A DNA stretch of 32,000 nucleotides, from the NCBI RefSeq assembly GCF_000025505.1, contig NC_013849.1, positions 1,650,001-1,682,000 of the forward strand, in the 5' to 3' direction. The notes under the pieces were generated by a model that was given only the letters and a program-made list of their open reading frames with translations, was not told the DNA's origin and did not search any database. Below, one piece after another: positions 6,742 through 22,429 of this stretch (position 1 is its first letter; each line of letters opens with the position of its first letter). Both the position numbers and the translations under genes were made by a program. The stretch comes from Ferroglobus placidus DSM 10642 (GTDB lineage: Archaea; Halobacteriota; Archaeoglobi; Archaeoglobales; Archaeoglobaceae).

Positions 6742-6746
6742 TTGGG

Positions 6747-8171: not shown

Positions 8172-8665
8172 TTATTCCCTCCAAAAATTCGTAAACGGTA
8201 TTTAACGAAAAAACTGAATCTGCAAATAAGCCTAAACAAAAGAACGACGATTGGCTGGAAAAATTTGTATCTCGTCATTCTGATCATGTAGTAAAATTCA
8301 TCGTCTTCTTTAACGATTCTGTAATCTACATCTCCGTATAGTGACAAAGCTCTTTTATTGTTCTTCCGAACTATAACCTTCACAATGAAATAATTTTCTT
8401 CGACGCATTCTTTCAGTCTTAAGTGCAGTTTTTTCCCTACCCCTTTGCCTTGGTGTTCTCCCCTAACAACCAAGTACAAACGGGGAAAAACTCTGCCTTT
8501 AATGGTGCCGCAAATCCCCGCTATTTCACCATTCACTCTTTCAGCAAGAATAACGTCCGACTTCATTAAATCTTCTAAGGGAGTTCTAAACGCCTCTTTT
8601 TCCTCCTTCAAAGAAGAAACGAAATCTGCAAGCTCCTCTCGTGTCAGTTCCCATTTTTCAGACAT
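8168..8665 (-). CDS. GNAT-family N-acetyltransferase
   Basis: Acetyl-CoA-binding signature VVRGEHQGKGVGKKLHLRL (R/Q-x-x-G-x-G/A). The core is followed by an unusual ~35-aa basic and hydrophobic tail (FFQPIVVLLFRLICRFSFFVKYRLRIF). Confidence 0.75.
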   Translation of the reverse strand: MSEKWELTREELADFVSSLKEEKEAFRTPLEDLMKSDVILAERVNGEIAGICGTIKGRVFPRLYLVVRGEHQGKGVGKKLHLRLKECVEENYFIVKVIVRKNNKRALSLYGDVDYRIVKEDDEFYYMIRMTRYKFFQPIVVLLFRLICRFSFFVKYRLRIFGGNK

Positions 8666-8666
8666 C

Positions 8667-9695
8667 TCACAATCCGCCTCTTAACTTTTTAAGAGAGGAG
8701 TAGACAGTATTTCCAACCTTTCCTAATATAGATAGGTTTTTTGAAGTAGAATACCAAGGAACGAGCTCTGGATTAAACTTTGCCTTGTAATGTCTCAGTC
8801 TTTGATCATCTCCAGCGTCAATCTCTTCGTAAAACTTAAATCCGCTTTTCCAGCTCCACTTAATAGCTTCCCATTGAAGAACGTCGTTCGGATAGACTCC
8901 TTTTATTGACGTTTTACTCATCCCAAACCAATAGGAAACTCTGTCCTTGTGACAGAGTAAAACGATCCCGCCAACAACATCTCCTGAATATTCAGCGACG
9001 AATATCCTCAGCTTCTCGGGATAGTACTTTTCGAAAATTTCTTTGAAATAGCTTTCGTAGTAGTCTTCTGGGAGTTTAACTCCCATTTCCTCAAATCTCC
9101 TTTTCATATTCAATCTCACAAACTCCAGATCCTCGAAATCTCCGTCTCTAATACTTACTCCCCTCTGCTTTGACTTTTCTACGCTTCTCCTTAGAGATCT
9201 GTCCAAATCATCCCAAATTTTTGTAAGGTCTCTTTTCAAACTCAAAACGTAGGTGTACTGAGGAGTAACGGAGTATCCACACCAGTTAAAGGGGCGTGAA
9301 TCCAGTAAAAATGGTGGAGTTCTTATTCTCACATAGTCAGCTCCAAGCCCTTTGAGAAAAGTATCTACTGCTTTAACAGATTCGATGAGAATCGTTTCCT
9401 TTTTGCTTTGCTTCAACTTTTCATAAGAGATCAAAGCCGGTCCGAGGTAAACCATGATGACTTTGGGCGGAGGTGAGAAAGCGAGTGTTAATCCAAACCT
9501 TCTTGTTAAGAAGATCGGGAAAATTGCTACCGGAGTTGAGTTCTTTTTTACGACTAACGGATAGAGCTTCGCTTTGGAGTAATTCTCCGCTGCTTTCAAC
9601 CACCCCCATTCGTGAAATATCGTCGTATAATCGGCTTTATTTACCAACTCATCCCATTCCTCTTCGTTTACAATTTCAGCTAAGTACTCCGACAT
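8667..9695 (-). CDS. FemAB-like (Acetyltransf_6 / BioF2-like GNAT-fold) aminoacyl/peptidyl-transferase family protein, paralog 1
   Basis: 342 aa. The N-terminal motif TTIFHEWGWLKAAENY and the later YPNDVLQWEAIKW resemble the FemAB-related proteins of exopolysaccharide loci. It is colinear with the paralog at 11944-12948. Confidence 0.65.
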   Translation of the reverse strand: MSEYLAEIVNEEEWDELVNKADYTTIFHEWGWLKAAENYSKAKLYPLVVKKNSTPVAIFPIFLTRRFGLTLAFSPPPKVIMVYLGPALISYEKLKQSKKETILIESVKAVDTFLKGLGADYVRIRTPPFLLDSRPFNWCGYSVTPQYTYVLSLKRDLTKIWDDLDRSLRRSVEKSKQRGVSIRDGDFEDLEFVRLNMKRRFEEMGVKLPEDYYESYFKEIFEKYYPEKLRIFVAEYSGDVVGGIVLLCHKDRVSYWFGMSKTSIKGVYPNDVLQWEAIKWSWKSGFKFYEEIDAGDDQRLRHYKAKFNPELVPWYSTSKNLSILGKVGNTVYSSLKKLRGGL

Positions 9696-9704
9696 ACGTC
9701 TCCC

Positions 9705-10823
9705 TCAAAACCTCCTCCCCAGGATTTCGAAAATTTCATAGAGATTTGGTGTTAAATCCGAAAAGTCGAACATAAATTCCCTATACTTAAGAAAATTCAG
9801 GAAATCCAACAGATTTCTTATTTTTTCTTTTTTCGTTTCTTTTTTAGAAAAAAGAACATCTGCTATCGACTTGAAGTCCTCTAAAAAACTTCTCAAATGA
9901 ATGCCTTCAGCGTGTTTCGTTTCGATTTCGTCAATTATGCCGAAATAAAATCTATAAAGCAACCAAGGGAAGTCAACTCCACAAATTGCAGCAGCATTAA
10001 CGCTGCCCCAGAACCTCGGATTTACATCGATGAGCTTTGGTTTACCATCGGTTTCGTCGATAATAAAATCAAAATTAATTATCCCGGAATACTCGACCTC
10101 CTCCGCAAGCTTTTCAGAATATTTCAAACAATCGTCGTTTCTGGAGCTTTTGAGGTAAGTGGCTGGTCCGAAGGGATACGGATAAAATCTCAACCTTTCG
10201 TAAACGAAAGCAGCTACAAAGTTCGATTTATCGCAGATTCCAGAAATGCTCAGCTGCTTTCCTTCTACCACTCTCTGAAGGAGAACGTCCTTCTCATTAA
10301 ATCTGAGTTCATCTTTAAGTGAAAGGTACTCGGATTCGTTCCTTATTACGTAAACTTCCCTCCCTCCACTACCAATTCTGAATTTTAAAATGAACTCACC
10401 AGATTTTGCAAATTCAAGAGCATCAGATTCGGATTTCGGGAAAACTGTCTCTGGCACAGGGATTCCTATTTTTTGAGAGATTTCAGTAATTCTTCCCTTA
10501 TCTACCAATGTCTTGACAGCCTCATAATCCCCACAAGCTATCCTAATTCCGTTTTCAATTTTCGATTTAACTTTAGCAAGATCGACAAGCTCTTTTTCTG
10601 GAAGAAGCGGAATAAACAGTTCGCAATTCTCATTCAAAGCCACTTCCAAGGCTTCCCGGTAACTTCTCACGAGGTGATTTTTCGAAGAATATTTTGAGTA
10701 GAACGCCGGAACTCTTTCTTTACTTGAAGCTAAATGAACTCTAACTCCTCTCCTACCCAGAGACCTCGCTATTGGTAAAGCAGGAGAGTCTGCTGCGTCG
10801 TAAACCATTATATTTTTTCTCAT
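9705..10823 (-). CDS. ATP-grasp enzyme (predicted carboxylate-amine ligase, COG3919-like)
   Basis: 372 aa. N-terminal Rossmann-like region (DSPALPIARSLGRRGVRVHL). Central ATP-grasp region (FILKFRIGSGGREVYVI, LLQRVVEG). C-terminal metal-binding region INFDFIIDETDGKPKLIDVNPRFWGS. Confidence 0.75.
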   Translation of the reverse strand: MRKNIMVYDAADSPALPIARSLGRRGVRVHLASSKERVPAFYSKYSSKNHLVRSYREALEVALNENCELFIPLLPEKELVDLAKVKSKIENGIRIACGDYEAVKTLVDKGRITEISQKIGIPVPETVFPKSESDALEFAKSGEFILKFRIGSGGREVYVIRNESEYLSLKDELRFNEKDVLLQRVVEGKQLSISGICDKSNFVAAFVYERLRFYPYPFGPATYLKSSRNDDCLKYSEKLAEEVEYSGIINFDFIIDETDGKPKLIDVNPRFWGSVNAAAICGVDFPWLLYRFYFGIIDEIETKHAEGIHLRSFLEDFKSIADVLFSKKETKKEKIRNLLDFLNFLKYREFMFDFSDLTPNLYEIFEILGRRF

Positions 10824-11947
10824 TACAATTCCCCAAATACAACCCTCTGATACAGTTCGAAATACCTCCTGCCGATATTGGGAAATGAAAACTTATTCTT
10901 CACGTATTTTCTGATAAAACTGCTTGGAAACTTTCTGTGATTATCTATCATCCACTCTATCGCTTGCTCGAAAGCTTTTTCATCGGTCACATCCACAACA
11001 ATCCCCGTTTTTCTCACAACGATTTCCTTCTGTCCTTTGTCACTCACTATTACCGGCTTTCCGCAAGCCATAGCTTCTATAACTACGACTCCAAACACTT
11101 CCCACAGACTCGGGAGAATTAGAAAGTCCGTTTCCGGTAAAATCTTCGAAACTTCCTCTCTCTTTTTCGATCCGAGAAATTCAACAACATCAGATAATCC
11201 GTAGTCTTCACTCAATTTTTTGTAGTAACTGAAACGAGAACCCCCGCCAACCAGAAGTAAATGAAAATCGTTTAAATCCGGACGTAAATTCTTAACAGCT
11301 TTTAGTAATTTATCCACACCCTTTATCGGATCGAGCCAACCTACGAAAATTCCTCTGGTTTTATGTCCAGCGTTATTTCCTCTTCTGAACGACTCCGTGT
11401 TTACGGCATTTGGTATTACGAATATCTTATTCGAAACTCCCAAGTTCAAAAGGTACCTCTTAAAAAAATTTGAAGGGACAACAACAGCATCGGCACTGCT
11501 TAAAACTACTTTGCCTAAAAACACTCTCAACTTATCCGATAGCCTTTTCTCAAACCTTTTTTGGAACTTCATGTGCTCCGTCAGCATTACTGGCTTTTTC
11601 CTCAATTTTCCGAGGATTATCGAGAGTATTCCGGCTGTAAAGACGTGAGCGTGAATAATATCCGGTTTAACTTCCCTTTCAATTTTAAGGAGTTCGAAAA
11701 CTACGAGAGGATAAAGAAAGAAATGGAGCTTAGCTGGAAGTTCCCTCACACTAATTCTGTACACAATGATGCTGTCATCCTGAAATTTTTCCACCTTAAC
11801 AGCTTTTCCCAAATTTTTTTCTAAATATATGTGTACGAGAAAAGATTTTACGTATTTTGAAGTTGCAACCGCTAAGTCCCTAACGAAGATGCCAGATGCG
11901 GAATTCTTCTTATGAGGATACCAAGGAGTGATAGATAACACCTTCAC
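10823..11947 (-). CDS. GT-B glycosyltransferase, family GT4 (Glycos_transf_1)
   Basis: Canonical C-terminal motif SLWEVFGVVVIEAMACGKPVIVSD. GTG start in a GTGA overlap with the upstream FemAB-like stop. Its stop overlaps the next ATG by 1 nt (TAATG). Confidence 0.85.
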   Translation of the reverse strand: MKVLSITPWYPHKKNSASGIFVRDLAVATSKYVKSFLVHIYLEKNLGKAVKVEKFQDDSIIVYRISVRELPAKLHFFLYPLVVFELLKIEREVKPDIIHAHVFTAGILSIILGKLRKKPVMLTEHMKFQKRFEKRLSDKLRVFLGKVVLSSADAVVVPSNFFKRYLLNLGVSNKIFVIPNAVNTESFRRGNNAGHKTRGIFVGWLDPIKGVDKLLKAVKNLRPDLNDFHLLLVGGGSRFSYYKKLSEDYGLSDVVEFLGSKKREEVSKILPETDFLILPSLWEVFGVVVIEAMACGKPVIVSDKGQKEIVVRKTGIVVDVTDEKAFEQAIEWMIDNHRKFPSSFIRKYVKNKFSFPNIGRRYFELYQRVVFGEL

Positions 11948-12948
11948 TTACTCTTCCCTCCGAACATGGTATAGAAAGTGCTGGCAATACTCGCTTTTGC
12001 GTTTTTCTTTACTACAACAAAGTAAAGCCACAAATCCGGGTTATATCTCACCTTGAACTCAGAAAGCCTCTCGGTATTTGCACCGATTATTTCGTACTTT
12101 TTGTAACCGCTCGTTTGCGCTTTCTCTATAACATGCCAGTTGAGCAGGTCGTTTGGGTAGGTTCCAGAAACCGTAACCTTGGGATTGCCAATCCAACTCG
12201 ATACTTTATCTCTATAAGCCAAATCGATTATTCCAGTAACCACCTCTCCTTCAAACTCGACAACGACGACCTTAACTTTCTCTGAAAGTGCATTGTAAAT
12301 TTCAAGGAGGTATTCCACGTTAACGTCAGAGCTTTTGTTTTGCTCTGAATACCTCAAGTTTACGAGTTCAATAACCTTCTTTAACTCCCTTACGCCTCCC
12401 TCGTAGATATCAAATCCAACCTTCTTAGCTTTTTTGATGTTTTGTCTGAGCTTCTTTTCGATTGACATCCAAAGTTCCTCGGAACTCCTATTCAGGTCGA
12501 TAACGTAGCTGTAAAACGGATCAGCTTTGTAGTTATTCCATTTAAACGGTCTAACATCAACAAGTCCTGGAGGGGTAAAAATCCTCACGAAATCAGCGTT
12601 CAATTCCCTAAAAAATTCGTCTAAGGCTTTAATTGAGCGACGGTAGTTGTACTCCACTATGCTACTCCTTAAATTGCGATCGTTCAAAATTAAAGGTCCT
12701 AAATACGGAATAGCCAATTTGGGTGGCGGAGAGAAGACCAAGTTTATTGATTTTAACCTTTTGTAGAATACTGGAAACAGACTTACGGGCTCCATTCCCT
12801 TGTAGCAAACGACTGGATAAAACTTCCACCCGGAATGTTTCTCTGCTGCTTTCAACCACTTCCACTCGTGAAATATCGTTGCGAAGGACGAAGAGTTAAC
12901 GAGTTCATCCCACAAAGTTCCATCTTCAACAGTTTTAAGCTCGACCAT
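11944..12948 (-). CDS. FemAB-like (Acetyltransf_6) family protein, paralog 2
   Basis: 334 aa, colinear with 8667-9695 (ATIFHEWKWLKAAEKH, FSPPPK, YPNDLLNWHVIEKA). The ATG directly abuts the upstream stop (TAAATG). Confidence 0.65.
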   Translation of the reverse strand: MVELKTVEDGTLWDELVNSSSFATIFHEWKWLKAAEKHSGWKFYPVVCYKGMEPVSLFPVFYKRLKSINLVFSPPPKLAIPYLGPLILNDRNLRSSIVEYNYRRSIKALDEFFRELNADFVRIFTPPGLVDVRPFKWNNYKADPFYSYVIDLNRSSEELWMSIEKKLRQNIKKAKKVGFDIYEGGVRELKKVIELVNLRYSEQNKSSDVNVEYLLEIYNALSEKVKVVVVEFEGEVVTGIIDLAYRDKVSSWIGNPKVTVSGTYPNDLLNWHVIEKAQTSGYKKYEIIGANTERLSEFKVRYNPDLWLYFVVVKKNAKASIASTFYTMFGGKSK

Positions 12949-13434
12949 TTAAATCACATCCAAACGATCAACATACGGATACTCACAACTGTAAGCAGCT
13001 TTGTTTTTGCCGTAAATAACTTTTAAAGGACTATTTACCTTCCTCATCCAGAGATCTGCAATTTGTGAAGCTGTCAGAAATTTCGCTCCATTTAACTTTC
13101 CGAGCTCGATCGCGTATAGATAAAGCCCTATCCAATCTGAAAAGTTGTCATAATTGAACAGAACATGATGCCAAAGAATGCAAAAAACTTCCCCGAATTT
13201 TTTCACATCATCAAACAACTCTCTTACAATATTTTTACCACTTTCCGGATTCTCCAGAGAGACGTCCATTACAGTCAGAGGTATCTCAAGAATCTCAATT
13301 CTTTTCCCCTGTTTTGTGTAGGGTTTAAAGGGTTTGCTCGTACCCCACCTAAATCCAACTCCGTCTTTACTCTTGAAGCCAAGCGAAGCATCGTAAATAA
13401 AACCCGCCTTCTCCTGAATTTTCCACGTTTCTGG
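12949..13434 (-). pseudogene. C-terminal fragment of a CE4 / NodB-type polysaccharide deacetylase split by an IS insertion
   Basis: I translated the frame upstream of the track ORF (12949-13269). It stays open to 13467 and reads ...SPETWKIQEKAGFIYDASLGFKSKDGVGFRWGTSKPFKPYTKQGKRIEILEIPLTVMDVSLE.... This continues exactly from the N-terminal fragment, which ends ...NLNLTIPET. The 106-aa track ORF is just an internal Met. Confidence 0.8.
13427..13434. repeat. Left copy of the 8-bp target-site duplication GTTTCTGG
   Basis: Identical octamer at 14122-14129, immediately outside both IS termini. In both copies it encodes P-E-T in the deacetylase frame. Confidence 0.8.
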
Positions 13435-13465
13435 AGACCCGTAAACTTTACCTTCCCAGAATATT
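13435..13465. repeat. Left terminal inverted repeat of the IS
   Basis: See the IS entry. 22 of 31 positions match the reverse complement of 14091-14121. Confidence 0.6.
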
Positions 13466-13480
13466 ATTCAGACAATTTTG

Positions 13481-14114
13481 ATGAAGTTGAAGAAGCTTAT
13501 AGAGGAGCTTGAGTTGTTTGAGAGGGAAAGAGTTCCGAACGACATTAGAATTCTTGGCGTAGCCACTTACGTTCAAACTTCTTCGACGAGGAGAACGGCT
13601 AAAATTCTCTCGGAGTTTCGTCCGGTCTCCCATACGGCTGTGTGGAAATGGATAAAGAAGTTTGAAGAGAAGTTACCAATTTCTACTGAGAAGAAGCGGA
13701 GAAATCTTGTTGCAATAGATGAAACGATTGTCAAAGCTAACAAAAAGAAGTTCTACATTTTTGCCGCGGTAGACGTTGAAAGGAACGAGCTGATTTTAAT
13801 GAGGGTTTACACGACGAGAAACATTCTTACAGCAAGGTCTTTCGTCAAAGAAGTTCTTAATTACTGCGAGAACGAACCCAAGTTTTTGATAGACAAAGCA
13901 CCATGGCTGAGAAAAGCAATAGAAAGTTTAGGCTTGGAATTTAAGCATGAAACCTTTCGGAAAGAGAAGTCTGGTTGAAGCGACGTTCAGCTCATTTAAA
14001 CAGAGAGTTAAGCTGTTCTTCTGTTCGATTTCCACTAAAAATCCAATTAAAAACTGGAATCTATTCTGCAAACTCTTCATGCTCTATTACAATCATCTGA
14101 GGTGGTTAAGTTGA
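13481..14114 (+). pseudogene. IS6-family DDE transposase, interrupted by a +1 frameshift
   Basis: The track ORF 13478-13978 (TTG; the ATG is at 13481) ends ...LGLEFKHETFRKEKSG*. Skipping one base at about 13955-13958 (run TTT then C) gives ...HETFGKRSLVEATFSSFKQRVKLFFCSISTKNPIKNWNLFCKLFMLYYNHLRWLS*, ending at 14114. That is the conserved C-terminal part carrying the catalytic Glu (SLVE). The two Asp candidates lie in VAIDETIV and FAAVDVERN. Confidence 0.7.
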
Positions 14115-14121
14115 CAGGGCT
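14091..14121. repeat. Right terminal inverted repeat of the IS
   Basis: See the IS entry. Confidence 0.6.
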
Positions 14122-14129
14122 GTTTCTGG
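14122..14129. repeat. Right copy of the 8-bp target-site duplication GTTTCTGG
   Basis: Identical to 13427-13434. Confidence 0.8.
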
Positions 14130-15032
14130 GATAGTAAGGTTTAAATTGTGCTGCCTTATTCCCGAAACTTCTTTTCCTATAACATTTTCCAGTCTTTCTT
14201 TTTCCAATTTCATCAATTTTGAATCCTTGAAAGAATTATAAGAGCCATGAAGAGCTATTTCCCACCCGCCTTTGTCAAGTGATCTTATGATTTCAACAAC
14301 CATTTTATCATCAAACTTATACCTTCTTCCGTAATGTTTCCAGCTTTTCGGAGTTAGAGAGGTCTTAGCAGTTTCCTCTAAAAAGAAGAACGTTGATTTA
14401 ACTTCGTAGCTATCCTCCAGCTCCATTAGCTCCTCAAATGTCCAAAATGGATTTTCCTTTTTCAAAAAATCGTGAAAGAATCCATATATCTCTCTAAGAG
14501 CGTCTTTTATTTCCATTCGCTTAAAATGCCTGAGGGCGTTCGTGAAATATTGGTAGGTTTTCGCGATTTCATCAACATCGTGAGTTAAGCATATGGAAAG
14601 GGGTAAATGTTTTCTAAAAAGGGGATAACCATTTTGGCTATACAAATCAGCGATTATGTTCACCAAATTCCTCTCAAGAATGTCCAGATAAGGAATTCTG
14701 CCAATCTTCGCAAAATCGTATCCATTCTTCAAACAATCCTTTTCGAAGTCTCCGGAAATTATGTAGCCAATTATTTCAAAAGGATTAAAGTCCACTCCAG
14801 CATGCGTTTTACTTTGAATTTCAACAAATTTTGAAAAGTTACAGTTATTGATAAAGAAGTCGTAAAGCTGGGAGGTGTCGAAGCTTTCGTTTGAAAACGA
14901 AACTTGAACTTCTGGATTTCTGGAAATTACACCACTCTCTTTGATAACAACATTATCGGCAAGACCGTTTCTTTCTGAAAACAATTTTGCTCCGATCTTA
15001 GAGTAAAAGTTTTCGATACATTTACCCTCCAA
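14122..15032 (-). pseudogene. N-terminal fragment of the CE4 / NodB-type polysaccharide deacetylase (the ORF reads 16 nt into the IS, to a stop at 14106)
   Basis: Motifs LSICLTHDVDE (Asp-Asp metal/catalytic motif), GWEIALHGSYNSF and VSGIRQHNLNL. After ...TIPET the frame continues into the IS inverted repeat (ALST*). The only in-frame start near the 5' end is TTG at 15032. Confidence 0.8.
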
Positions 15033-15060: not shown

Positions 15061-15975
15061 TTATTCTCTTCTGACTATATATACCAAACCAAGCATCAGC
15101 CCGACTGGTATTGCCAGCAACCCGAACTCTGGTATGGGAATGTCGATGTCGTCGTTACCACAGTATTCTGTAAGATGGAAGTTTTTCGGTAATGGTTGCT
15201 GTGGCAGATTCTTGTTTTCCATTCCAACAAAGACCTTAGGAATTGCAAGCTCTATTATGTAATTGGTCCTTCCAAAGTCCATAATCTTCGTGTCTCTCCA
15301 GAAGCCCGGAGCGTAGCCGAGCGGGTCTCCAAGAGCGTTTATCTTCAATCTCGCTGGCGAAGCATCACTGTGTGTTGCATCTTTCCAGCTTCCAGGAGAG
15401 GATGTGTCATAAATCTCGTAGAGAGTCGAATTTCCGACCATCGTGTTTCTCACTGGATGAGTTGACGGGTAATACAATCTGACTCCGAATTCGTAACCGT
15501 AGTCTCCCGTCGATTTATTGCCATCGAGGTCAAGAGCCAGGTCACCTATGTCAGCTGGCTTACCTGAGTAAACTATAGCAATGTAGATGAAGTCCTCATC
15601 TTCAGTCAGGTACATGGCTTCCATGTCGAATTTCTCTCTACCCAGTGGTTGCGGCTCTCCATCGATCAACGGCTCGTAGTAAGTAGAGTAAGAAGAGCCC
15701 ATACCTTTTATGTGTACACCTTCAGCATATGCATCCGCATACCCGAGTTTTGGATCAACATTATCCTCGATGACGAACCTAATCCCCGAGTTTGGTAGCC
15801 ACGCAGACACGTTTCCATTCTCACCGGGAACGCTTGAATCGTTTAAGCCATCTCTCAATTCATCAAGCGTAATTCCCCAGTCGCTCAAATCTCCGTCGAT
15901 AGTTATAGCCATTGCCTTTGGCAACGCCAGTGCAAGCACTACAAGTCCAAACAAAACTTTTAACGTTTTTTTCAT
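15061..15975 (-). CDS. Secreted surface (glyco)protein with a PEF-CTERM sorting signal (predicted archaeosortase substrate)
   Basis: The C-terminus, ...DIDIPIPEFGLLAIPVGLMLGLVYIVRRE, has the Pro-Glu-Phe motif, a TM helix and a basic tail. The N-terminal signal peptide is MKKTLKVLFGLVVLALALPKAMA. There are four N-x-S/T sequons (NDS, NVS, NKS, NST). The mature N-terminus, ITIDGDLSDWG, resembles carbohydrate-binding-type domains. The track start is TTG 15990; I prefer ATG 15975, which has GGTGA 8 nt upstream. Confidence 0.8.
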   Translation of the reverse strand: MKKTLKVLFGLVVLALALPKAMAITIDGDLSDWGITLDELRDGLNDSSVPGENGNVSAWLPNSGIRFVIEDNVDPKLGYADAYAEGVHIKGMGSSYSTYYEPLIDGEPQPLGREKFDMEAMYLTEDEDFIYIAIVYSGKPADIGDLALDLDGNKSTGDYGYEFGVRLYYPSTHPVRNTMVGNSTLYEIYDTSSPGSWKDATHSDASPARLKINALGDPLGYAPGFWRDTKIMDFGRTNYIIELAIPKVFVGMENKNLPQQPLPKNFHLTEYCGNDDIDIPIPEFGLLAIPVGLMLGLVYIVRRE

Positions 15976-16020
15976 TTCATCATTCACCAAATCTCCCTTA
16001 AATTTTCAATTTAATGAACC

Positions 16021-16085: not shown

Positions 16086-17114
16086 TTAATGTTCAACTTC
16101 CTCAACGAAGTTCACAAGCCACTCACTTAAATCGACTTTTTCTTTGATAAGAACATCCCTTCTTCTTTTCCAGATTCTTTTAGATCTCTTGTCTTCGAGG
16201 ATTTTAACAGCTCTTTCTAAAGCCTCTTCTTGGTTCGCATAGAACTCAATAAGCTTGTATTTGTTTCTCAACTCAAGCAAGTTACCTGACATTAATCCTG
16301 TAGGTAAACCGCTACTTGTCGATTCGACATGTATGGAGGGCGTTCCGAGTACAGCCGCTTCAACAGCCATTGTAGCTCCTTCTCCAATGTACATGTCAGC
16401 GAAGTAAAGTAAAGAGTGGGCAAGTTCTGGTGGAATTTTCGCATTTTCCCCGTTTTTACTCTCATTAAGTACAACAACGTTTCCGAAATCTTCAAGAGTT
16501 TTTTTGGCTTTCTTATAATCCTCCAATCCTTTCAAACTCCTATCGTGATAGGCATTCCAAGAAATTGTTCTGAAAACTATAAACCTCTCGTTTTTTGGGA
16601 AATCCAAGTAATCGTAAACAGTCCTATCTTCTCTAAAGTTGTTCGGATGCAAGTAAGCTAACTCAAAAAAGCTGTTAAATCGCACATGTTTTTCTCCAAA
16701 ATCTCCAAGAAAGCTCTTTGGTGTAACAACATACTTTGAGAAAGGTACGGTTATCATGTGCAGCTTTTTGGCTATTTCAGTGTCTTCGAGTATCACATAA
16801 TCTCCCCCAACAACCGCATTTGCGTGAACCATGTGAGGGATGGGTCTTCCTATGGTTACATCCGGTCTAAATTTCCTCAATATACTCAGTGAGCTTCTTT
16901 CGTATTTAACAAGTTTGAGCAATTTGGAGTAAATGTTACCACCGCTCTCACCAAGTATTTTGTAGTTTTCATAGTACTTTTCGAGCAAATACATCGTTTC
17001 TCCCTTATTCACAGCTAAAACCAGAATTTCATGTCCTCTTTTCTCCATCTCTTTAACGAAATGTCGAAATATGTGCACGTGTTTTGGATGCACTACTCCA
17101 ATGGCTACCTTCAA
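16086..17114 (-). CDS. DUF354-family protein (archaeal, predicted GT-B-like fold; function unknown)
   Basis: The N-terminus, KVAIGVVHPKHVHIFRHFVKEMEKRGHEILVL, matches my recollection of the DUF354 signature (H-V-H-x-F ... L-x-x-R-G-H-E). TTG start preceded by GAGGTGAGGA. Confidence 0.55.
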   Translation of the reverse strand: MKVAIGVVHPKHVHIFRHFVKEMEKRGHEILVLAVNKGETMYLLEKYYENYKILGESGGNIYSKLLKLVKYERSSLSILRKFRPDVTIGRPIPHMVHANAVVGGDYVILEDTEIAKKLHMITVPFSKYVVTPKSFLGDFGEKHVRFNSFFELAYLHPNNFREDRTVYDYLDFPKNERFIVFRTISWNAYHDRSLKGLEDYKKAKKTLEDFGNVVVLNESKNGENAKIPPELAHSLLYFADMYIGEGATMAVEAAVLGTPSIHVESTSSGLPTGLMSGNLLELRNKYKLIEFYANQEEALERAVKILEDKRSKRIWKRRRDVLIKEKVDLSEWLVNFVEEVEH

Positions 17115-17120
17115 ATTTCC

Positions 17121-17960
17121 TCACCTCTTCAGCAAAATATAAGAAATTGGAAGAAGTACAATCATGAAAAAAATCCATCCGAGATGCGAGTGAACTTTCA
17201 GCATGAAATCAGAACCAAAGTTGTAGGTGAGGTAAACCAATACTGCTACCCTAAGTAAGTTGGCTATGTAAACAGCCACAGCCAAAACGATAAGTGTTTT
17301 CGCTACTCCTCTCCAATCCCTCCAATGGAAAGTGAGGTTGTAGGATAATACCATGCTCGTAACGAGAAGCAACGAATACCATCCGAAGCAAGCTAGGTCT
17401 ATCCTCAAAAATGCGTGATTTTCTCCGAGAACTTCAATAATTCTAAAGTCAGATAGTTTTACACCAATTCCAATTGACTGCAAGAGCATCACAACTGGGA
17501 CAGCAACTGCGTAATGTCCGTAGAGATACGGCAAGTACATGCTAATTTTTGCAGGGATCATGAACAAGAATGCGAAGAGTATTAAAAATATCAGAGAAAA
17601 GTAAGCTCCGAATTTGCCTATTTCCGAATACTTGCTCCCGGATCCGTAGAATATGAGGGAAACACCAAAAAGAATTACCATCGTATCAAAGGTTTGGATT
17701 TTAGAGTCGATGATATTATTCACGAATAAGTCCAGCACTGTTACTGCTACTCCTACAGATATAAAAAACCAAGATCTACGAAGCTCTTCGAAAGTGTCTT
17801 TAGAGTTTTTAGCCAAAAGAACCAGAGCTATCAAGGATAAAAAGAGAAAGAAAATTCCGATATACACTGTTCCGTAAGCAAGTTCTATCGATGCTCCGAC
17901 TATTAAAGCTGCCAAGACGATTATCCCTAATTCACTGGAAAACTTCATCTTATTATCCAT
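17121..17960 (-). CDS. artC: Archaeosortase (exosortase/archaeosortase family; probably the PEF-CTERM-specific ArtC type)
   Basis: 279 aa with about 8 TM helices. Family signature residues appear in order: Cys in RIDLACFGWYSL, Arg in YIANLLRVAVL, His in KVHSHLGWIFF. It lies two genes from a PEF-CTERM protein. An alternative ATG at 17948 forms an ATGA overlap with the PIG-L stop. Confidence 0.75.
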   Translation of the reverse strand: MDNKMKFSSELGIIVLAALIVGASIELAYGTVYIGIFFLFLSLIALVLLAKNSKDTFEELRRSWFFISVGVAVTVLDLFVNNIIDSKIQTFDTMVILFGVSLIFYGSGSKYSEIGKFGAYFSLIFLILFAFLFMIPAKISMYLPYLYGHYAVAVPVVMLLQSIGIGVKLSDFRIIEVLGENHAFLRIDLACFGWYSLLLVTSMVLSYNLTFHWRDWRGVAKTLIVLAVAVYIANLLRVAVLVYLTYNFGSDFMLKVHSHLGWIFFMIVLLPISYILLKR

Positions 17961-18583
17961 CTTATAACCTCGAAAACTTCCGCATACTCTACATTTATCT
18001 GCACTCCTCGCGTTCTTGCTAAACTTTCTATAAAACTTCCATTAAAGTAAGGTCGTTCAGCTTGAGATTTATATTTCGTAAGAGCGAGTATTTTCCGCTC
18101 AATATGTCTTTTGTCCAGTGGAATAAAAGCGGTCGTATCAAAAGTGAGGTTGTTCCACGGCTGTTCATAGCCAAGGATCGTGCAACCTTTAAATGCTCTT
18201 AGTGTTTCCTCCCTTGTAACTTTGTGATCCTGATGGGTGTCGTAAGAAGAGGGTGTGAAAACCACATCTGGAGATATGTTCTTTCGAACGTTTATTAAAG
18301 AATCCAAAATCTCCTGTCTGAATGTCGGAAACTTCCTCACTTCGAAGTCGTAAAGTAGAACGTTCTTTTTATCTATTCCAAGAACTTCCATTGCTTCCAA
18401 AACCTCTTTTCTGAGAATGTTTTTAGGGTAAATTTTAGGAACGGATTTTTCACACGAAGATAAAGCAGCGTAATAGACTTCCCTCTCTTCTTCAACGAAT
18501 TTAGCAATGCTCCCACCACATCCTAGCTCTCCATCATCGGTGTGTGGGCTTAAGATTAAAATCCTCTCAAACATCACTATCAC
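17945..18583 (-). CDS. PIG-L / LmbE-family N-acetylglucosaminyl deacetylase
   Basis: Signature ILILSPHTDDGELGCGGSIAK (P-H-x-D-D) and a later HQDH. GTG start in a GTGA overlap with the upstream stop (alternative ATG at 18574). Confidence 0.85.
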   Translation of the reverse strand: MIVMFERILILSPHTDDGELGCGGSIAKFVEEEREVYYAALSSCEKSVPKIYPKNILRKEVLEAMEVLGIDKKNVLLYDFEVRKFPTFRQEILDSLINVRKNISPDVVFTPSSYDTHQDHKVTREETLRAFKGCTILGYEQPWNNLTFDTTAFIPLDKRHIERKILALTKYKSQAERPYFNGSFIESLARTRGVQINVEYAEVFEVIRWIIR

Positions 18584-20118
18584 TCTAAAATTCCGAGCGG
18601 GTCTATCCTTCTATTTTCTTTCTCCAAATCCCAAAAAACTCTGTAAATGTTCAGAATCTCCGGTGAATCGTAGAAAACCACCGATTCGACTTTGTAAAAT
18701 TCTCCAATCTCATTTTTAGTGATTCTACCATCCTTAACCAGCGAAACTTCCCATGCGGTTTTGAGCTTGTTTAAGCCAACATTTGCTGCAACATCCACGA
18801 TTGAAGGTTTTAGAGTGAAAACACTGCTTGCCGATGAAATTATACTGCTCGTACGCTTATATTGGGACAAGTACTTTTTCCTAACCTTTCTGTCTGACGT
18901 TCCGTTTATTTTTGCGGCAATCTGTCTCCTCCTACTTTCCACTTTATTCAAAATTACGTGTTTTTCCCACAAATCTTTTTCAGATAACCGGAATTCCTTG
19001 GAAATGGAATTAACAGCTGCTTCATGCTCCTTCCCCAAGTAAACATCCATGGATTCCCAGAAAATCGTTTTCGGAATATTAAAGCCGAAGTTCTCAGAAA
19101 TTTCATTTGATATTAGTCCATACTTCAAACTTCCACCAGAGCCAGTAATAAAAACAGACGTACCCATTCCTTCAAAGAACAGGACATTCCTCATAATCGC
19201 TTTTGGACTTAAGTTTTCGAGTTCTTCGTGAAGATCTTCTAACTCAACCTTTTTTCTGCAAAGGTTGCATTCCCCAATAAATCCATTATCTTTCCTTTCA
19301 ATAGATACTTTACCCCCACATTCACAGTGGTACCAGAACGGTAGGGCATTTTTGCTCGCTTTTAGATCTGAAAAGTTTAGGTTTTCTGCAGCAGAATTCT
19401 GGAAGAAATTAAACGCCTCAACGTTCTCTATTATTTCTTTCCAAACTTTACCAAACAGCTTTTTGTTTTGCACGTCAGAACTTCTGAAAAACCTGATGTT
19501 CAAACCGATCAATCTGCATATCCTCGCAAACGATATAGCATTCAAGTCTGCAAAGTTGTCAGAAAGATCGTAACTAATCCACAGTTCCTCTACAATTTCC
19601 TCAACGTCGATATTACTAAGATAGTTCCTTGAAATATCCTTCACTACCTTCTCCCACTTTTCTTCTGACGGTTTATCAAGTTCATTAAATCTCTTCCATA
19701 TCTCGGAGTCGTTAGGTCTTCTGAGACCTATGTTCAGAAATCCGTATTTATTCATTTTTGGAATTCTGTTCTGGAACAAGAGCTTCGATGAGGATATGTC
19801 GTAATCAAGGAATCCAAAGAAAGCAATAGAGCTTTCATCAGAGTTTCTAAGTTCTTTTTCTATAAATTCTGCAAGAAAAGCTTTTTTCCAAATCCCCGAA
19901 TACGGTAGGAAGAGGGGTTGGTGTCCTGTCTCTATCACTAAAATCTTTTTGTCTATTCTATTGTCCTTATAGGGGATTTTCGCATCTCTATGGAACTTTT
20001 CAGATACCTCCAACAATCCTTTTAAATTTCTTCTCTGGTCGTTACCTAAAATTTTTCCACTACCAGCTATATTCTCGCAAAACTCAGAAATATTCATACT
20101 ATTCAGCTCCTTCCTCAT
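18580..20118 (-). CDS. BshC-like putative ligase with a CxC...CxxC zinc-ribbon element (function unproven)
   Basis: 512 aa. Three stretches resemble the B. subtilis BshC blocks as I recall them. VIETGHQPLFLPYSGIWKKAF resembles VVGGQQAGLLTGPLYTIHK. LSPKAIMRNVLFFEGMGTSVFITGSGGSLKYG...FGFNIPKTIFW resembles [30 protein letters not shown]...GFKMPPVMPR. VSIERKDNGFIGE resembles FLIEKDNGRFV. The zinc ribbon is WYHCECGGKVS...GECNLCRKK. An alternative ATG at 20097 has GGAG 9 nt upstream. Confidence 0.5.
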   Translation of the reverse strand: MRKELNSMNISEFCENIAGSGKILGNDQRRNLKGLLEVSEKFHRDAKIPYKDNRIDKKILVIETGHQPLFLPYSGIWKKAFLAEFIEKELRNSDESSIAFFGFLDYDISSSKLLFQNRIPKMNKYGFLNIGLRRPNDSEIWKRFNELDKPSEEKWEKVVKDISRNYLSNIDVEEIVEELWISYDLSDNFADLNAISFARICRLIGLNIRFFRSSDVQNKKLFGKVWKEIIENVEAFNFFQNSAAENLNFSDLKASKNALPFWYHCECGGKVSIERKDNGFIGECNLCRKKVELEDLHEELENLSPKAIMRNVLFFEGMGTSVFITGSGGSLKYGLISNEISENFGFNIPKTIFWESMDVYLGKEHEAAVNSISKEFRLSEKDLWEKHVILNKVESRRRQIAAKINGTSDRKVRKKYLSQYKRTSSIISSASSVFTLKPSIVDVAANVGLNKLKTAWEVSLVKDGRITKNEIGEFYKVESVVFYDSPEILNIYRVFWDLEKENRRIDPLGILE

Positions 20119-20425
20119 TTTTTCTGTTTATAAAGACGAGCTCGACTCTCCAGACAGTAATCATCAAAATCGTAAAAATAAGTAGAGATACGAAAAGATT
20201 TGAAGGAGTCGTTTTTGCACCAAATCCGATATCTATCGAAATAGCTACTAAAACCACTACAACAATACTGATAACACCGGAAAACGCTATTCTTTCAGCA
20301 AAGCTCAACTCATCTTTTTTTGGAAATATAGCCAACATCGTCGCATATCCCGGAATAAAAAACACGAAAATCAATCCGAATAACAACCTCGCCCCGTTAA
20401 TTATAACTTCTACAGCATTAACCAT
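20099..20425 (-). CDS. Small membrane protein resembling the N-terminal TM module of DUF1616 proteins
   Basis: 108 aa with 3 TM helices. The motif FFIPGYATMLAIFPKKDELSFAERIAFSGVISI matches the DUF1616 N-terminal pattern (PGY...FP...ER.A.S). Confidence 0.5.
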   Translation of the reverse strand: MVNAVEVIINGARLLFGLIFVFFIPGYATMLAIFPKKDELSFAERIAFSGVISIVVVVLVAISIDIGFGAKTTPSNLFVSLLIFTILMITVWRVELVFINRKNEEGAE

Positions 20426-20882
20426 CTAAACCTCCCTCCTTAAGCCTCCAAATTTTGTACTTATTGAATCCCATTACAAAAATTTGAGAAAGAATTAGTC
20501 CAAGCATATCGGCAAACAAATCCATCACACTCGAAGATCTTCCGGGAACAAACATCTGATGAATCTCATCGAAGATTCCGTAACTTGTACCAATTAAGAT
20601 CGTCATAACGTAAGGATTGAATTTTATTAGATCTCTCACAGCTGGATTCAACACAAACCCAAATCCCACATAAAGCAGAATGTGTGCAAATTTGTCCGGA
20701 TACTTAAATGCGAAATAAAATGGAACTGCTAAAAATCCCAAACCGTGTTCTTTAAGAAAGTCGTAAATCACTACGATGTTCTCTCTTGAAATCGGATTGG
20801 GAGGATTTGAGGAAGAGGATAGGAGAAATATTGCAGAAGCATAAACTATCGCAAAAATTCCATAAATGTACTTTTTCTGCAT
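20418..20882 (-). CDS. VanZ-like family membrane protein
   Basis: Motifs DKFAHILLYVGFGFVL and DEIHQMFVPGRSSSVMDLFADMLGLILS are typical of VanZ-like proteins. It is the first gene of the minus-strand array. Confidence 0.7.
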   Translation of the reverse strand: MQKKYIYGIFAIVYASAIFLLSSSSNPPNPISRENIVVIYDFLKEHGLGFLAVPFYFAFKYPDKFAHILLYVGFGFVLNPAVRDLIKFNPYVMTILIGTSYGIFDEIHQMFVPGRSSSVMDLFADMLGLILSQIFVMGFNKYKIWRLKEGGLDG

Positions 20883-20903
20883 CTCTGCTCATCTCTTCTC
20901 CAC

Positions 20904-20912
20904 TATATATAA
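20904..20912 (-). promoter_or_regulatory. Candidate TATA box for the 15-gene minus-strand array (leaderless geometry)
   Basis: TATATATAA is centred about 26 nt upstream of the VanZ ATG (20882). Confidence 0.35.
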
Positions 20913-20932
20913 TTTGGTGAAGATAGCAAATG

Positions 20933-20963: not shown

Positions 20964-21395
20964 ATGAACGAAAACGATGATATAATTCCTGAAAAAACGG
21001 GCAAACTCATGCTCAAAGCGCTAATTGCAGCTACAATTTTAAGCGTTGTGTTGATGTCTTACCTTCTGTGGGTAAGCTCGCAGGAGAGGTATACAACCAT
21101 CTATATTTACCCAGATTCGTATACGAACTACGCAAAACCCGGAAGCGTTGTGAAATTTAAGTACGGCATTTACTGTCACGAGGGAAAGGAGACGGAGTAT
21201 CTAATCAAAGTATATCTCGGAGAAAAGCTGGTCAAATCAAAGGAAATAATGTTAAAGAATGGGGAAAGTCGGGAAGAAAACGAAAGCATAGTTTTACCCC
21301 AAAACATCTCTTTGCCAGTTAAAGTTAGAGTTGAGGCAGTGACAGAAAATTCCGTTTACGACGCTTACTTCTGGATAAAAGCTAGTAAGGAATAA
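20964..21395 (+). CDS. Membrane-anchored small protein resembling the C-terminal extracellular module of DUF1616 proteins
   Basis: 143 aa with one N-terminal TM helix (LIAATILSVVLMSYLLWV). It then reads ERYTTIYIYPDSYTNYAKPGSVVKFKYGIYCHEGKETEYLIKVYL, which resembles the DUF1616 C-terminal pattern (F-T-E-x-Y ... Y-P ... N-H-E-G ... Y). Confidence 0.45.
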   Translation: MNENDDIIPEKTGKLMLKALIAATILSVVLMSYLLWVSSQERYTTIYIYPDSYTNYAKPGSVVKFKYGIYCHEGKETEYLIKVYLGEKLVKSKEIMLKNGESREENESIVLPQNISLPVKVRVEAVTENSVYDAYFWIKASKE

Positions 21396-22338
21396 AAAGA
21401 CCGATTATACAAAAGATAGTTGTCAACCCATACATCGATAGAACAACTTGTTTTTCCGTCATTTTAAAGTAATACGGCAAAACCCATTTGAGAGTGTATG
21501 GGTTTGGTGCTTCAATCGTTTTGTCTCTTCTCACTCTTCCAAACTTAACGATCTCGTATCTCCTATCTTGAGGTTTCATCTTTCTCATTATTCTCCAGTA
21601 AACGTAGAGGAGGAAGTTCAGTGTGTGGGGAAAAAGCATTACGAACCCAGAAACGTAAAATCCTCCGAGGATTATAGACAAGCCAACAGTCGAACCCATC
21701 GCAAAAGCTCCGACGTTTCCATCAAATATCTTCGAGGGATACCAGTTGTAGTACAAGAAGCCGAGTACTGCTCCAAGCATCGACGAGGTTATCAAAACGC
21801 TTCCCCTTCCAGTAATCAGAGTTTTAACCAATAGAAAAGCAAGTAAAATTGCCGTCAATCCAGCAGCCATTCCGTTAAAGCCAGAATGCATGTTCACGAG
21901 GTTTGCAACAACCATAACGTAAATAGGTGCGGCAATGAAGAGAAAGTAACCACTTACTTCCCCCACCACTGGAATCCAAGCGGTAGCTGCCACAAAAGCT
22001 ATCGGAGCTGTAAATAGTGGGGGAAAAACGATCTTCGTTGCTCTACCTATATCCACAAAGTCGTCGATTAATCCGAATAGACCGTAGAGCGAAATTATGA
22101 ACAGCGAAACTGCTTCTGGAAGGGATATCTGAAATGGGAAACTCCCAAACATTGCAAGAAAGACTACTGCATAGAATGCAAGAAGTATCGACAGTCCACC
22201 TGAAGTTGGGACGTATTGTGCACTATTCTTGTAGTAGTCTTTTACAACCCTGTTTCTGTCTTTGAATTTTTTAATTTGGAGAGGAATTAACAGCATGGCT
22301 AAACCAAACGCCGCAATCAATGTTCCTAAAAATTCCAT
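21382..22338 (-). CDS. Glycosyltransferase family 4 (MraY/WecA/AglH-type) polyprenyl-phosphate HexNAc-1-phosphate transferase
   Basis: Multi-TM protein with motifs GLIDDFVDIG and VVANLVNMHSGFNGMAAG. The track start is GTG 22350; I prefer ATG 22338 (MEFLGTLIAAF...). The 3' end overlaps the 20964-21395 gene by 14 nt. Confidence 0.85.
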   Translation of the reverse strand: MEFLGTLIAAFGLAMLLIPLQIKKFKDRNRVVKDYYKNSAQYVPTSGGLSILLAFYAVVFLAMFGSFPFQISLPEAVSLFIISLYGLFGLIDDFVDIGRATKIVFPPLFTAPIAFVAATAWIPVVGEVSGYFLFIAAPIYVMVVANLVNMHSGFNGMAAGLTAILLAFLLVKTLITGRGSVLITSSMLGAVLGFLYYNWYPSKIFDGNVGAFAMGSTVGLSIILGGFYVSGFVMLFPHTLNFLLYVYWRIMRKMKPQDRRYEIVKFGRVRRDKTIEAPNPYTLKWVLPYYFKMTEKQVVLSMYGLTTIFCIIGLFIPY

Positions 22339-22429
22339 ACCACCACACACCCGTTTTCAAAATTGAAAGAAAGCACCAGCTGATTCCGGCACCCTCCCAT
22401 CATCGAAATCAGATTAGGTAACCGGAATT

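Follow-up and report, generated by a model that had tools for sequence, protein, structure and literature searches.

What does an archaeon do with a relative of BshC, a protein of bacterial bacillithiol synthesis, whose gene runs directly into one for a PIG-L/LmbE-type deacetylase? The question is raised by a 32,000-nucleotide (nt) stretch of the Ferroglobus placidus DSM 10642 genome (contig NC_013849.1, positions 1,650,001 to 1,682,000; this whole stretch is called the window here), in which the BshC-like gene Ferp_1923 and its PIG-L neighbour sit in an operon on the minus strand. A first-pass annotation of the sequence offered two answers. In the first, the pair makes a bacillithiol-like low-molecular-weight thiol, for which a GT4 glycosyltransferase would provide a GlcNAc-aglycone, PIG-L would act as BshB and the BshC-like protein would add cysteine; in the second, the same module has been recruited to a surface glycan or anchor. 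The second is favoured by our analysis, because the models of the thiol enzymes are missed at their cut-offs, the operon partners are envelope proteins, and neither bacillithiol nor a BshABC set has been reported from archaea. Our verdict is that the pair is an archaeal variant of the BshB/BshC-type deacetylase–ligase module, one that is new and widely distributed, and that it is set in an archaeosortase C (ArtC) surface-glycoconjugate operon.

The two reading frames lie exactly where they were first placed (Table 1). The longer open reading frame (ORF) encodes 512 amino acids (aa) and is 100% identical to the hypothetical protein Ferp_1923 of F. placidus DSM 10642, the shorter encodes 212 aa, and the two genes overlap in a GTGA, the TGA stop of the BshC-like gene (18582..18580) being interleaved with the GTG start of the PIG-L gene (18583..18581). 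The length of 512 aa holds for the longest ORF; the true start is probably the second ATG at 20097, giving a protein of 505 aa that begins MNISEF. This start is favoured because it agrees with the NCBI annotation of Ferp_1923 and with the N-termini of all homologues, and because of its context, 1 nt past the stop of an upstream DUF1616-like gene and preceded by a purine-rich stretch (GGAGC/AGGAAGGAG).

Single-sequence comparisons give little sign of the relationship with BshC. BLASTP of Ferp_1923 against Bacillus subtilis BshC (a comparison sequence verified as 100% identical to chain 4wbd_A) was non-significant at E 0.42, nonetheless with the second and third of three sequence blocks in register, and hhalign of the family against this single sequence gave a probability of only 9%. 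Ferp_1923 had no match at E ≤ 0.1 to the Pfam and NCBIfam BshC models, PF10079 (threshold 27 bits) and TIGR03998 (equivalog cut-off 265.8 bits), and searches of PDB sequences with Ferp_1923 alone and with the family profile returned weak zinc-finger matches only, 4WBD not among them. The search with BshC models that had been suggested as a check did reach other relatives: four of 45 close members match PF10079 weakly, P0053 (39.2 bits) and L058 (29.9 bits), both of the distant branch, exceed its threshold, and members from Asgard archaea and Bathyarchaeia, which are tied to Ferp_1923 at E ~1e-21, match TIGR03998 at E 4e-10 to 3e-6, with the distant members scoring 26–39 bits and so missing its cut-off.

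Profile-to-profile alignment reproduced all three blocks that had been recognised as shared with BshC. When a 47-sequence family profile was aligned with an 18-sequence BshC profile by hhalign (E 8.8e-5, probability 60%), the 309 aligned columns paired ESGHQPNFLPYSGxWKK with VGGQQAGLLTGPLYTIHK of BshC in the first block (GHQP/GGQQ), PFWYHCxCGGKV with NLFYxxDxERFLL in the ribbon block, and SxxAVxRN...FISGSGGSLxYG...GFxxP with SNNVVTRP...FIAGPGExxYW...KMPP in the glycine-loop block (GSGG/GPGE). Furthermore, an AlphaFold2 model of Ferp_1923 built on the family alignment (pLDDT 94.7, pTM 0.93) found BshC as its top match when compared with the PDB by Foldseek (4WBD; E 1.1e-13, TM-scores 0.58/0.55, 550 aligned columns, full length), and the three-dimensional architecture of the model equals that of 4WBD. 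This top structural match settles the relationship, hence the original homology call was correct: judged by the predicted structure, Ferp_1923 is related to BshC at the superfamily level, and it is a distinct archaeal branch of the BshC/class I aminoacyl-tRNA-synthetase-like superfamily. The second-ranked structure was class I lysyl-tRNA synthetase (1IRX; E 3e-10, TM-score only 0.41), and six of 45 family members weakly match PF01921. We rejected a tRNA synthetase paralogue, as Ferp_1923 lacks the anticodon-binding domain and sequence-level membership and its best match is BshC.

Ferp_1923 and BshC (B. subtilis YllA; PF10079 plus PF24850) are alike in their Rossmann-like core and helical C-terminal domain, and a GxQ motif after the first strand, an FxxxD region and a GxGxxxY loop align between them. 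Residue conservation was taken from 194 family proteins retrieved without any motif pattern. The GHQP motif, placed in the model at a strand/helix boundary and aligned to GGQQ (G90-Q91-Q92) of BshC, has H66 and Q67 invariant (167/167), while K79 (165/167), D105 (168/170) and the glycine-rich loop (G326 180/181, G328 168/177, G329 164/179, Y333 171/180) are nearly so. Identity to BshC is ~13%, and a profile search run exhaustively over 1.84 billion representatives left the two families unmerged: 526 proteins were found at E ≤ 1e-3 and 186 at E ≤ 1e-30, without true BshC being drawn in. BshC itself comprises thousands of clusters, with 2,923 matches among the scored candidates, far more than 526.

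The clearest difference from BshC lies in a Cys4 zinc ribbon, which had been read as intact CxC...CxxC in Ferp_1923 against non-cysteine residues in BshC. This reading held up well. All four cysteines are kept in 177 of 178 family proteins. The ribbon sequence reads F-W-Y-H-C-x-C-G-G-K ... G-x-C-P-x-C, and in the model its four beta-strands form two hairpins that carry the cysteine pairs at their turns, as in a classical zinc ribbon; the aligned segment of BshC is a cysteine-free hairpin, FYEYEDERFLIEKDNGRF. By its sequences, the Ferp_1923 family is thus delimited as a separate archaeal family defined by the ribbon, which would be a structural metal site that BshC has lost. In six loci from metagenome-assembled genomes (L038, L045, L046, L049, L054, L067) the BshC-like ORF is in at least two pieces, and neighbouring genes are also fragmented in some of them, notably L046; the breaks look like errors of assembly or frameshifting rather than genuine pseudogenes.

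The partner protein is a sound member of the PIG-L/LmbE family. It scores 71.3 bits against PF02585 (E 1.4e-19, cut-off 28.2) and its metal/base motif is intact (H14-T-D16-D17 plus H120, with a spacer of 102 residues), as it is in the partner genes of other loci, which agrees with the family definition of HxDD plus H at a spacer of 97–148 residues (PMC4101496). BshB1 is its best-scoring NCBIfam model, at 59 bits for the window protein and 59–110 bits overall, against a cut-off of 182.5. Ferp_1923 and BshC are both partnered with an LmbE/PIG-L de-N-acetylase, in the case of BshC functionally, bshC and bshB not being adjacent in B. subtilis (PMC5790435).

A survey of archaeal genomes, proposed at the outset as a check on the pairing, came out clearly in its favour. 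Scanning one genome per species gave 77 loci, from Archaeoglobi, Methanoperedens, Methanomicrobiales, Methanocellales, Altiarchaeota, Syntrophoarchaeum, Alkanophaga, Micrarchaeota, Thermoplasmatales, Bathyarchaeia, Nanohaloarchaeota and Asgard archaea; because the retrieval patterns included the ribbon motif, cysteine conservation was judged on the motif-free protein sets instead. Among the 58 complete loci (at least 800 bp on both sides of the BshC-like gene), an adjacent same-strand PIG-L gene was present in 46, across many archaeal phyla (33 downstream, 13 upstream), and a nearby one in four more. Methanoperedens genomes (L012–L018) carry two BshC-like paralogues, one with PIG-L downstream (L012, L018) and the other without PIG-L but with a DUF1616-like gene upstream, accompanied by a divergent ArtC in L015–L017 and a PEF-CTERM gene in L016. 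Two contigs (L029, L050) are labelled as bacterial metagenome-assembled genomes (Deltaproteobacteria and ‘uncultured bacterium’), one of them with a full archaeal-type cluster, and here mis-binning is more likely than bacterial origin.

The surroundings of the pair were counted in 38 close-branch loci with at least 8 kb of flank and in 17 distant-branch loci. On the Ferroglobus branch a recurrent order is seen: a polyprenyl-phosphate N-acetylhexosamine (HexNAc)-1-phosphate transferase (PF00953; 17/38, upstream of the DUF1616-like and BshC-like genes), a small DUF1616-like protein with three transmembrane segments (3-TM; 25/38, directly upstream of the BshC-like gene), the BshC-like gene, PIG-L, a DUF354 gene (27/38, following PIG-L) and a CE4 deacetylase, followed by FemAB-like genes (two to four) and, in some loci, an ATP-grasp ligase. 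On the distant branch PIG-L precedes the BshC-like gene, amid genes for GT2 and GT4 glycosyltransferases, UDP-sugar dehydrogenase, epimerase and GFO/IDH/MocA proteins.

In the window, stop/start overlaps run through VanZ, DUF1616-like, BshC-like, PIG-L and ArtC genes, with DUF354 6 nt on. The VanZ-like gene, probably the first of the operon, overlaps the DUF1616-like gene by 8 nt, and the DUF1616-like/BshC-like junction is either a 20-nt overlap with the long ORF or the 1-nt gap to the probable start. An A/T-rich TATA-like box lies in the 82-bp divergent intergenic region upstream of VanZ, a candidate operon promoter whose position suggests a leaderless transcript starting with VanZ. The surface-glycan context had been anticipated, and is now the favoured one, but the coupled ArtC, the PEF-CTERM gene, the VimE-like and FemAB-like genes and the upstream 3-TM gene had all been missed.

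ArtC scores above its model cut-off, and its start overlaps the PIG-L stop; it directly follows PIG-L in L001, L002 and L010. ArtC is given in PMC5244752, after Haft 2012, as the cognate enzyme of the PEF-CTERM signal. The sole PEF-CTERM protein of the window, presumably its substrate, is encoded nearby and ends in ...PIPEF, a transmembrane helix and RRE; enzyme and presumed substrate of an ArtC/PEF-CTERM system are both present, and the pairing recurs in related loci. ArtC occurs in 16 related loci; of the 38 close-branch loci, 14 have ArtC and 23 have ArtC or a PEF-CTERM tail. Homologues of the PEF-CTERM protein were found in nine loci, most with PEF tails, adjoining ArtC in Archaeoglobales, Methanoperedens and Syntrophoarchaeum, and in a control of the tail pattern P[ED]F gave 20 matches against 0–1 for control tripeptides. 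The mature domain of ~280 aa had no Pfam match. Most homologues have a cysteine a few residues upstream of PEF, and the closest share an xEYCGND motif.

We propose, with a probability of roughly 60% for the explanation as a whole, that the BshC-like enzyme and the adjacent PIG-L deacetylase act as a pair at the cytoplasmic face of the membrane in building an envelope glycoconjugate. PIG-L would strip the N-acetyl group from a HexNAc residue, unmasking its 2-amine; the residue is probably GlcNAc, because every characterised LmbE-like enzyme works on GlcNAc-containing substrates (PMC4101496). PIG-L probably acts on a glycan precursor that is lipid-linked and has been primed by the neighbouring HexNAc-1-phosphate transferase, as suggested by the adjacency of this gene and the coupled 3-TM protein, with a nucleotide-linked precursor less likely. 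The BshC-like enzyme would then join the freed amine of the sugar through an amide bond to an activated carboxylate, most likely that of an amino acid, using the nucleotide-binding Rossmann core common to class I synthetases. We infer this acylation from homology, and it parallels the step defined genetically for BshC, as glucosaminyl-malate (GlcN-Mal) accumulates in bshC mutants and genetics place BshC at the addition of cysteine (PMC5790435). The DUF1616-like membrane protein upstream probably tethers or partners the soluble BshC-like enzyme, and the product would be a building block of an envelope glycoconjugate whose genes occur together with those for ArtC and PEF-CTERM proteins.

Several observations weigh against this explanation. 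PIG-L is absent within 10 kb in eight of the 58 complete loci, mostly those of the second Methanoperedens paralogue. Similarity to BshC is weak by sequence, with a non-significant BLASTP result and no direct model match, and the ligase assignment rests by analogy on the genetics of a distant homologue and on the fold, because the BshC reaction has never been reconstituted in vitro (PMC5790435). In this genome, moreover, the CE4 deacetylase gene is broken: its two halves align to the two ends of full-length orthologues, with ~50 residues missing and an insertion sequence (IS) fragment between them, and this strain may therefore have an impaired pathway.

A more specific version, which we offer tentatively, is that the pair builds the nucleophile used by ArtC. 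A lipid-linked hexosamine would have its 2-amine capped with an amino acid, FemAB-like enzymes might extend the cap, and ArtC would cleave the PEF-CTERM signal and amide-link the new C-terminus to the free alpha-amine. The pair may build such an acceptor by the same reasoning that has been applied to two other systems. T9SS (type IX secretion system) cargo in Porphyromonas and Tannerella is joined through an amide bond, by a sortase-like enzyme, to a sugar that is 2-N-seryl or 2-N-glycyl substituted, the linking sugar being the product of VimE, a CE4 deacetylase, and VimA, which is FemAB-like, and the authors speculated that PEP-CTERM/exosortase loci do likewise (PMC7468200). For the archaeosortase ArtA, synteny with pssA and pssD led to archaetidylethanolamine being proposed as the amine nucleophile (PMC7157517).

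The logic of the Wbp/Vim system (VimE, VimA, PorU) is the same as that proposed here, namely deacetylation of a 2-N-acetyl sugar, aminoacylation of the amine and sortase-type linkage of cargo, and the window also holds a VimE-like CE4 deacetylase, FemAB-like genes whose best model, TIGR03019, is one that VimA matches, and a sorting transpeptidase together with its substrate. The acting pair here, however, would be PIG-L and the BshC-like protein, with folds unrelated to VimE and VimA, and the transpeptidase is ArtC, not PorU; the window genes score 45.6 bits against 440 for VimE and 38–43 bits against 260 for TIGR03019. By this analogy, the resemblance is one of logic, not membership. As with ArtA/PGF-CTERM and PssA/PssD in Haloferax and Methanosarcina, an archaeosortase gene is syntenic with putative makers of an amine-bearing membrane molecule, whereas the candidate here is a hexosamine glycoconjugate, de-N-acetylated or aminoacylated, with ArtC as the sortase and PEF-CTERM as the signal. 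Bacterial XrtA/PEP-CTERM exopolysaccharide loci similarly combine an exosortase-family enzyme with FemAB-like, polysaccharide deacetylase, GT4 and Wzx flippase genes, and the best NCBIfam models of the FemAB-like and GT4 genes in the window are PEP-CTERM-associated, but the system here is archaeal, with a PEF rather than a PEP signal. To our knowledge, descriptions of the accessory genes in those bacterial loci do not include a BshC-like/PIG-L pair.

The surroundings of the pair can also be read, less plausibly, as the decoration at the nucleotide-sugar level of a general N-glycan or exopolysaccharide sugar, e.g. by N-acyl or N-aminoacyl groups, with ArtC merely sharing an envelope island; we regard this as unlikely. 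N-acyl and N-aminoacyl amino sugars occur in some O-antigens. ArtC or PEF-CTERM genes were not found within 10 kb in 15 of the 38 close-branch and all 17 distant-branch loci, where the distant-branch neighbours (UDP-sugar dehydrogenase, epimerase/dehydratase, GFO/IDH/MocA oxidoreductase, GT2) suit such a role. So does the sole Pfam family above cut-off for Ferp_1923, WbqC (PF08889), named for an O-antigen cluster gene, although the match is marginal (22.6 bits, gathering cut-off 21.3) and partial, taking in model positions 37–168 (132 of 218) and residues 117–248 without the ribbon or helical C-terminal domain. Ten of 45 family members match PF08889, and both families occur in glycan clusters, with 218 positions in the WbqC model against 505–512 aa here. 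Mere co-location sits poorly, however, with the overlap of ArtC and PIG-L and their direct succession in three loci, with the presence of ArtC in 14 of 38 close-branch loci when ~1% would be expected (an estimate from 0–2 genes per genome; PMC5244752, Table 2), and with the conserved coupling to the 3-TM protein and the polyprenyl-phosphate HexNAc-1-phosphate transferase, which points to a membrane-bound substrate.

It is very improbable that the BshC-like protein is no amide ligase at all, serving instead as a scaffold, a regulator or a metal/redox module (rubredoxin- or Dph3-like) that assists PIG-L or ArtC. The ribbon bears a weak resemblance to CSL/Dph3-type zinc fingers (Dph3/Kti11, PDB 1YOP; E 0.015), and the CSL finger of Dph3/Kti11 is capable of iron binding and electron transfer. 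The sequence shows no obvious canonical HIGH or KMSKS signature, and the chemistry of BshC itself has never been shown in vitro (PMC5790435). Against a non-catalytic role, the invariant residues occupy classic nucleotide-binding positions of the Rossmann fold (GHQP after the first strand and the later glycine-rich loop) and align with invariant residues of BshC, for which the accumulation of GlcN-Mal in mutants indicates a part in the cysteine-adding step (PMC5790435).

Bacillithiol synthesis would further call for a BshA-type glycosyltransferase. That a GT4 gene shares the operon, as first suggested, is true only loosely. The upstream gene bearing the Pfam name ‘Glycos_transf_4’ is the PF00953 phosphotransferase, which is neither a CAZy GT4 nor BshA and lies beyond an opposite-strand ORF, and the CAZy GT4 gene is 6.6 kb downstream, past the IS-disrupted gene. 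The GT4 genes, which occur near the pair in 8 of 17 distant-branch loci, have BshA among their top models, but they score 83–103 bits (91.6 for the window gene) against a cut-off of 273.7 and match PEP-CTERM and exopolysaccharide glycosyltransferase models equally well or better. No GT4 or PIG-L gene reached the BshA or BshB cut-off in the window and the 10-kb flanks of the loci. InterPro matches to BshA and BshC in Asgard archaea led a review to raise the possibility of bacillithiol there, although no archaeon has ever been found to contain it (PMC7278568); in a 2025 survey no BshABC set came up in archaea (PMC12719100). A thiol pathway is therefore rejected as the leading explanation and is the least probable of those weighed here, even with BshC as the closest structure and BshB1 as the best model of the partner, since all three equivalog cut-offs fail and the operon encodes envelope functions (VanZ, DUF1616, ArtC, PEF-CTERM protein, flippase, HexNAc-1-phosphate transferase).

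The remaining genes of the window are listed in Table 1. The gene order from the second FemAB-like gene to the first (8667..12948) is also contiguous in L002 and L010. The ATP-grasp ligase has among its better-scoring NCBIfam models NF053643 (‘putative pseudomurein biosynthesis ATP-grasp protein’), at 62 bits and far below cut-off, and the HexNAc-1-phosphate transferase weakly matches an archaeal pseudomurein MraY model; both matches hint at peptide-decorated glycan chemistry. A 143-aa membrane-anchored protein that could be assigned to no family, encoded between the transferase and VanZ, keeps this place in 13 related loci, in 12 of which its gene is on the opposite strand (the exception is L047). 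A protein of 1122 aa, which has membrane segments at its N-terminus and matched neither Pfam nor NCBIfam models, is found again in six to seven other loci, within 10 kb of the BshC-like gene, and may be a large envelope or GT-C-like protein.

Table 1. Features of the window around Ferp_1923, in window coordinates, with the evidence for each.
Feature	Position	Strand	Evidence
1122-aa protein	1893..5261	+	
Type I phosphodiesterase	5248..6750	-	Pfam, NCBIfam
Wzx-type flippase	6747..8171	-	Pfam, NCBIfam
GNAT acetyltransferase	8168..8665	-	Pfam, NCBIfam
Second FemAB-like gene	8667..9695	-	Pfam; best NCBIfam TIGR03019
ATP-grasp ligase	9705..10823	-	Pfam
GT4 glycosyltransferase	10823..11947	-	Pfam; best NCBIfam TIGR03088 (PEP-CTERM glycosyltransferase)
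FemAB-like gene	11944..12948	-	Pfam; best NCBIfam TIGR03019 (PEP-CTERM-associated FemAB)
C-terminal remnant (106 aa) of the CE4 deacetylase gene	12949..13269	-	Aligned to last ~100 residues of L002/L010 orthologues
IS fragment (DDE_Tnp_IS240) inside the CE4 deacetylase gene	13165..13978	+	PF13610 E 8.6e-10 for 13478..13978
CE4/VimE-like polysaccharide deacetylase, N-terminal two-thirds (308 aa)	14106..15032	-	NF053580 VimE E 3.6e-12, 45.6 bits
Secreted PEF-CTERM protein (309 aa)	15061..15990	-	Signal peptide; tail read from translation
DUF354 protein, GT-B-like putative glycosyltransferase	16086..17114	-	PF04007 E 4.1e-17
Archaeosortase C (ArtC)	17121..17960	-	TIGR03762 125.4 bits, cut-off 100
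PIG-L/LmbE-family de-N-acetylase, 212 aa	17945..18583	-	PF02585
BshC-like protein Ferp_1923 (class I aminoacyl-tRNA-synthetase-like Rossmann core, zinc ribbon, helical C-terminal domain)	18580..20118	-	AlphaFold2, Foldseek, hhalign
Glycine-rich loop G326-S-G-G-S-L-K-Y-G334 after core strand, aligned to BshC GPGEINYW	19117..19143	-	Conservation, alignment
Zinc ribbon, residues 258-293, PFWYHCECGGKV...GECNLCRK, C265/C267/C284/C287	19240..19347	-	AlphaFold2 model, conservation
G65-H66-Q67-P68 motif after strand beta-1, position of class I ‘HIGH’ signature	19915..19926	-	Conservation, alignment, model
Small 3-TM protein, matches N-terminal part of DUF1616	20099..20425	-	PF07760 E 1.7e-12
VanZ-like membrane protein	20418..20882	-	PF04892 E 1.1e-12, NF037970 67 bits
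A/T-rich TATA-box-like element AAATTATATATAG	20903..20915	-	Read from sequence; ~26 nt upstream of VanZ ATG
143-aa membrane-anchored protein	20964..21395	+	
Polyprenyl-phosphate HexNAc-1-phosphate transferase, MraY/WecA family (Pfam ‘Glycos_transf_4’)	21382..22350	-	PF00953 E 1.1e-23

Our results bear on how archaeal genomes are annotated, on the chemistry of the BshC fold and on the anchoring of archaeal surface proteins. The archaeal ‘BshC’ matches in InterPro (PMC7278568) are members of this zinc-ribbon family with glycan genes around them; it would be wrong to take them as evidence for archaeal bacillithiol, and an annotation risk is thereby corrected. Reconstitution of the BshC-fold reaction has resisted more than 10 years of effort (PMC5790435), and for approaching it the family offers thermostable homologues that have a metal ribbon, invariant residues as candidates for the active site, and partner proteins that are conserved. 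A thermostable, ribbon-bearing homologue with an obligate small membrane partner could reveal the cofactor or partner that is missing for BshC.

The anchoring aspect concerns the acceptor used by archaeosortases other than ArtA and by exosortases generally. Because one conserved operon joins ArtC, its PEF-CTERM substrate, a deacetylase that would unmask an amine and a putative amine-acylating enzyme, it points to a specific candidate for the ArtC acceptor, one detectable in principle by mass spectrometry. If the acceptor reading is true, it would be the archaeal counterpart of sortase with the pentaglycine of lipid II and of PorU with its 2-N-seryl sugar, and a BshC-like family whose chemistry is unsolved in bacteria would serve in making the ArtC acceptor.

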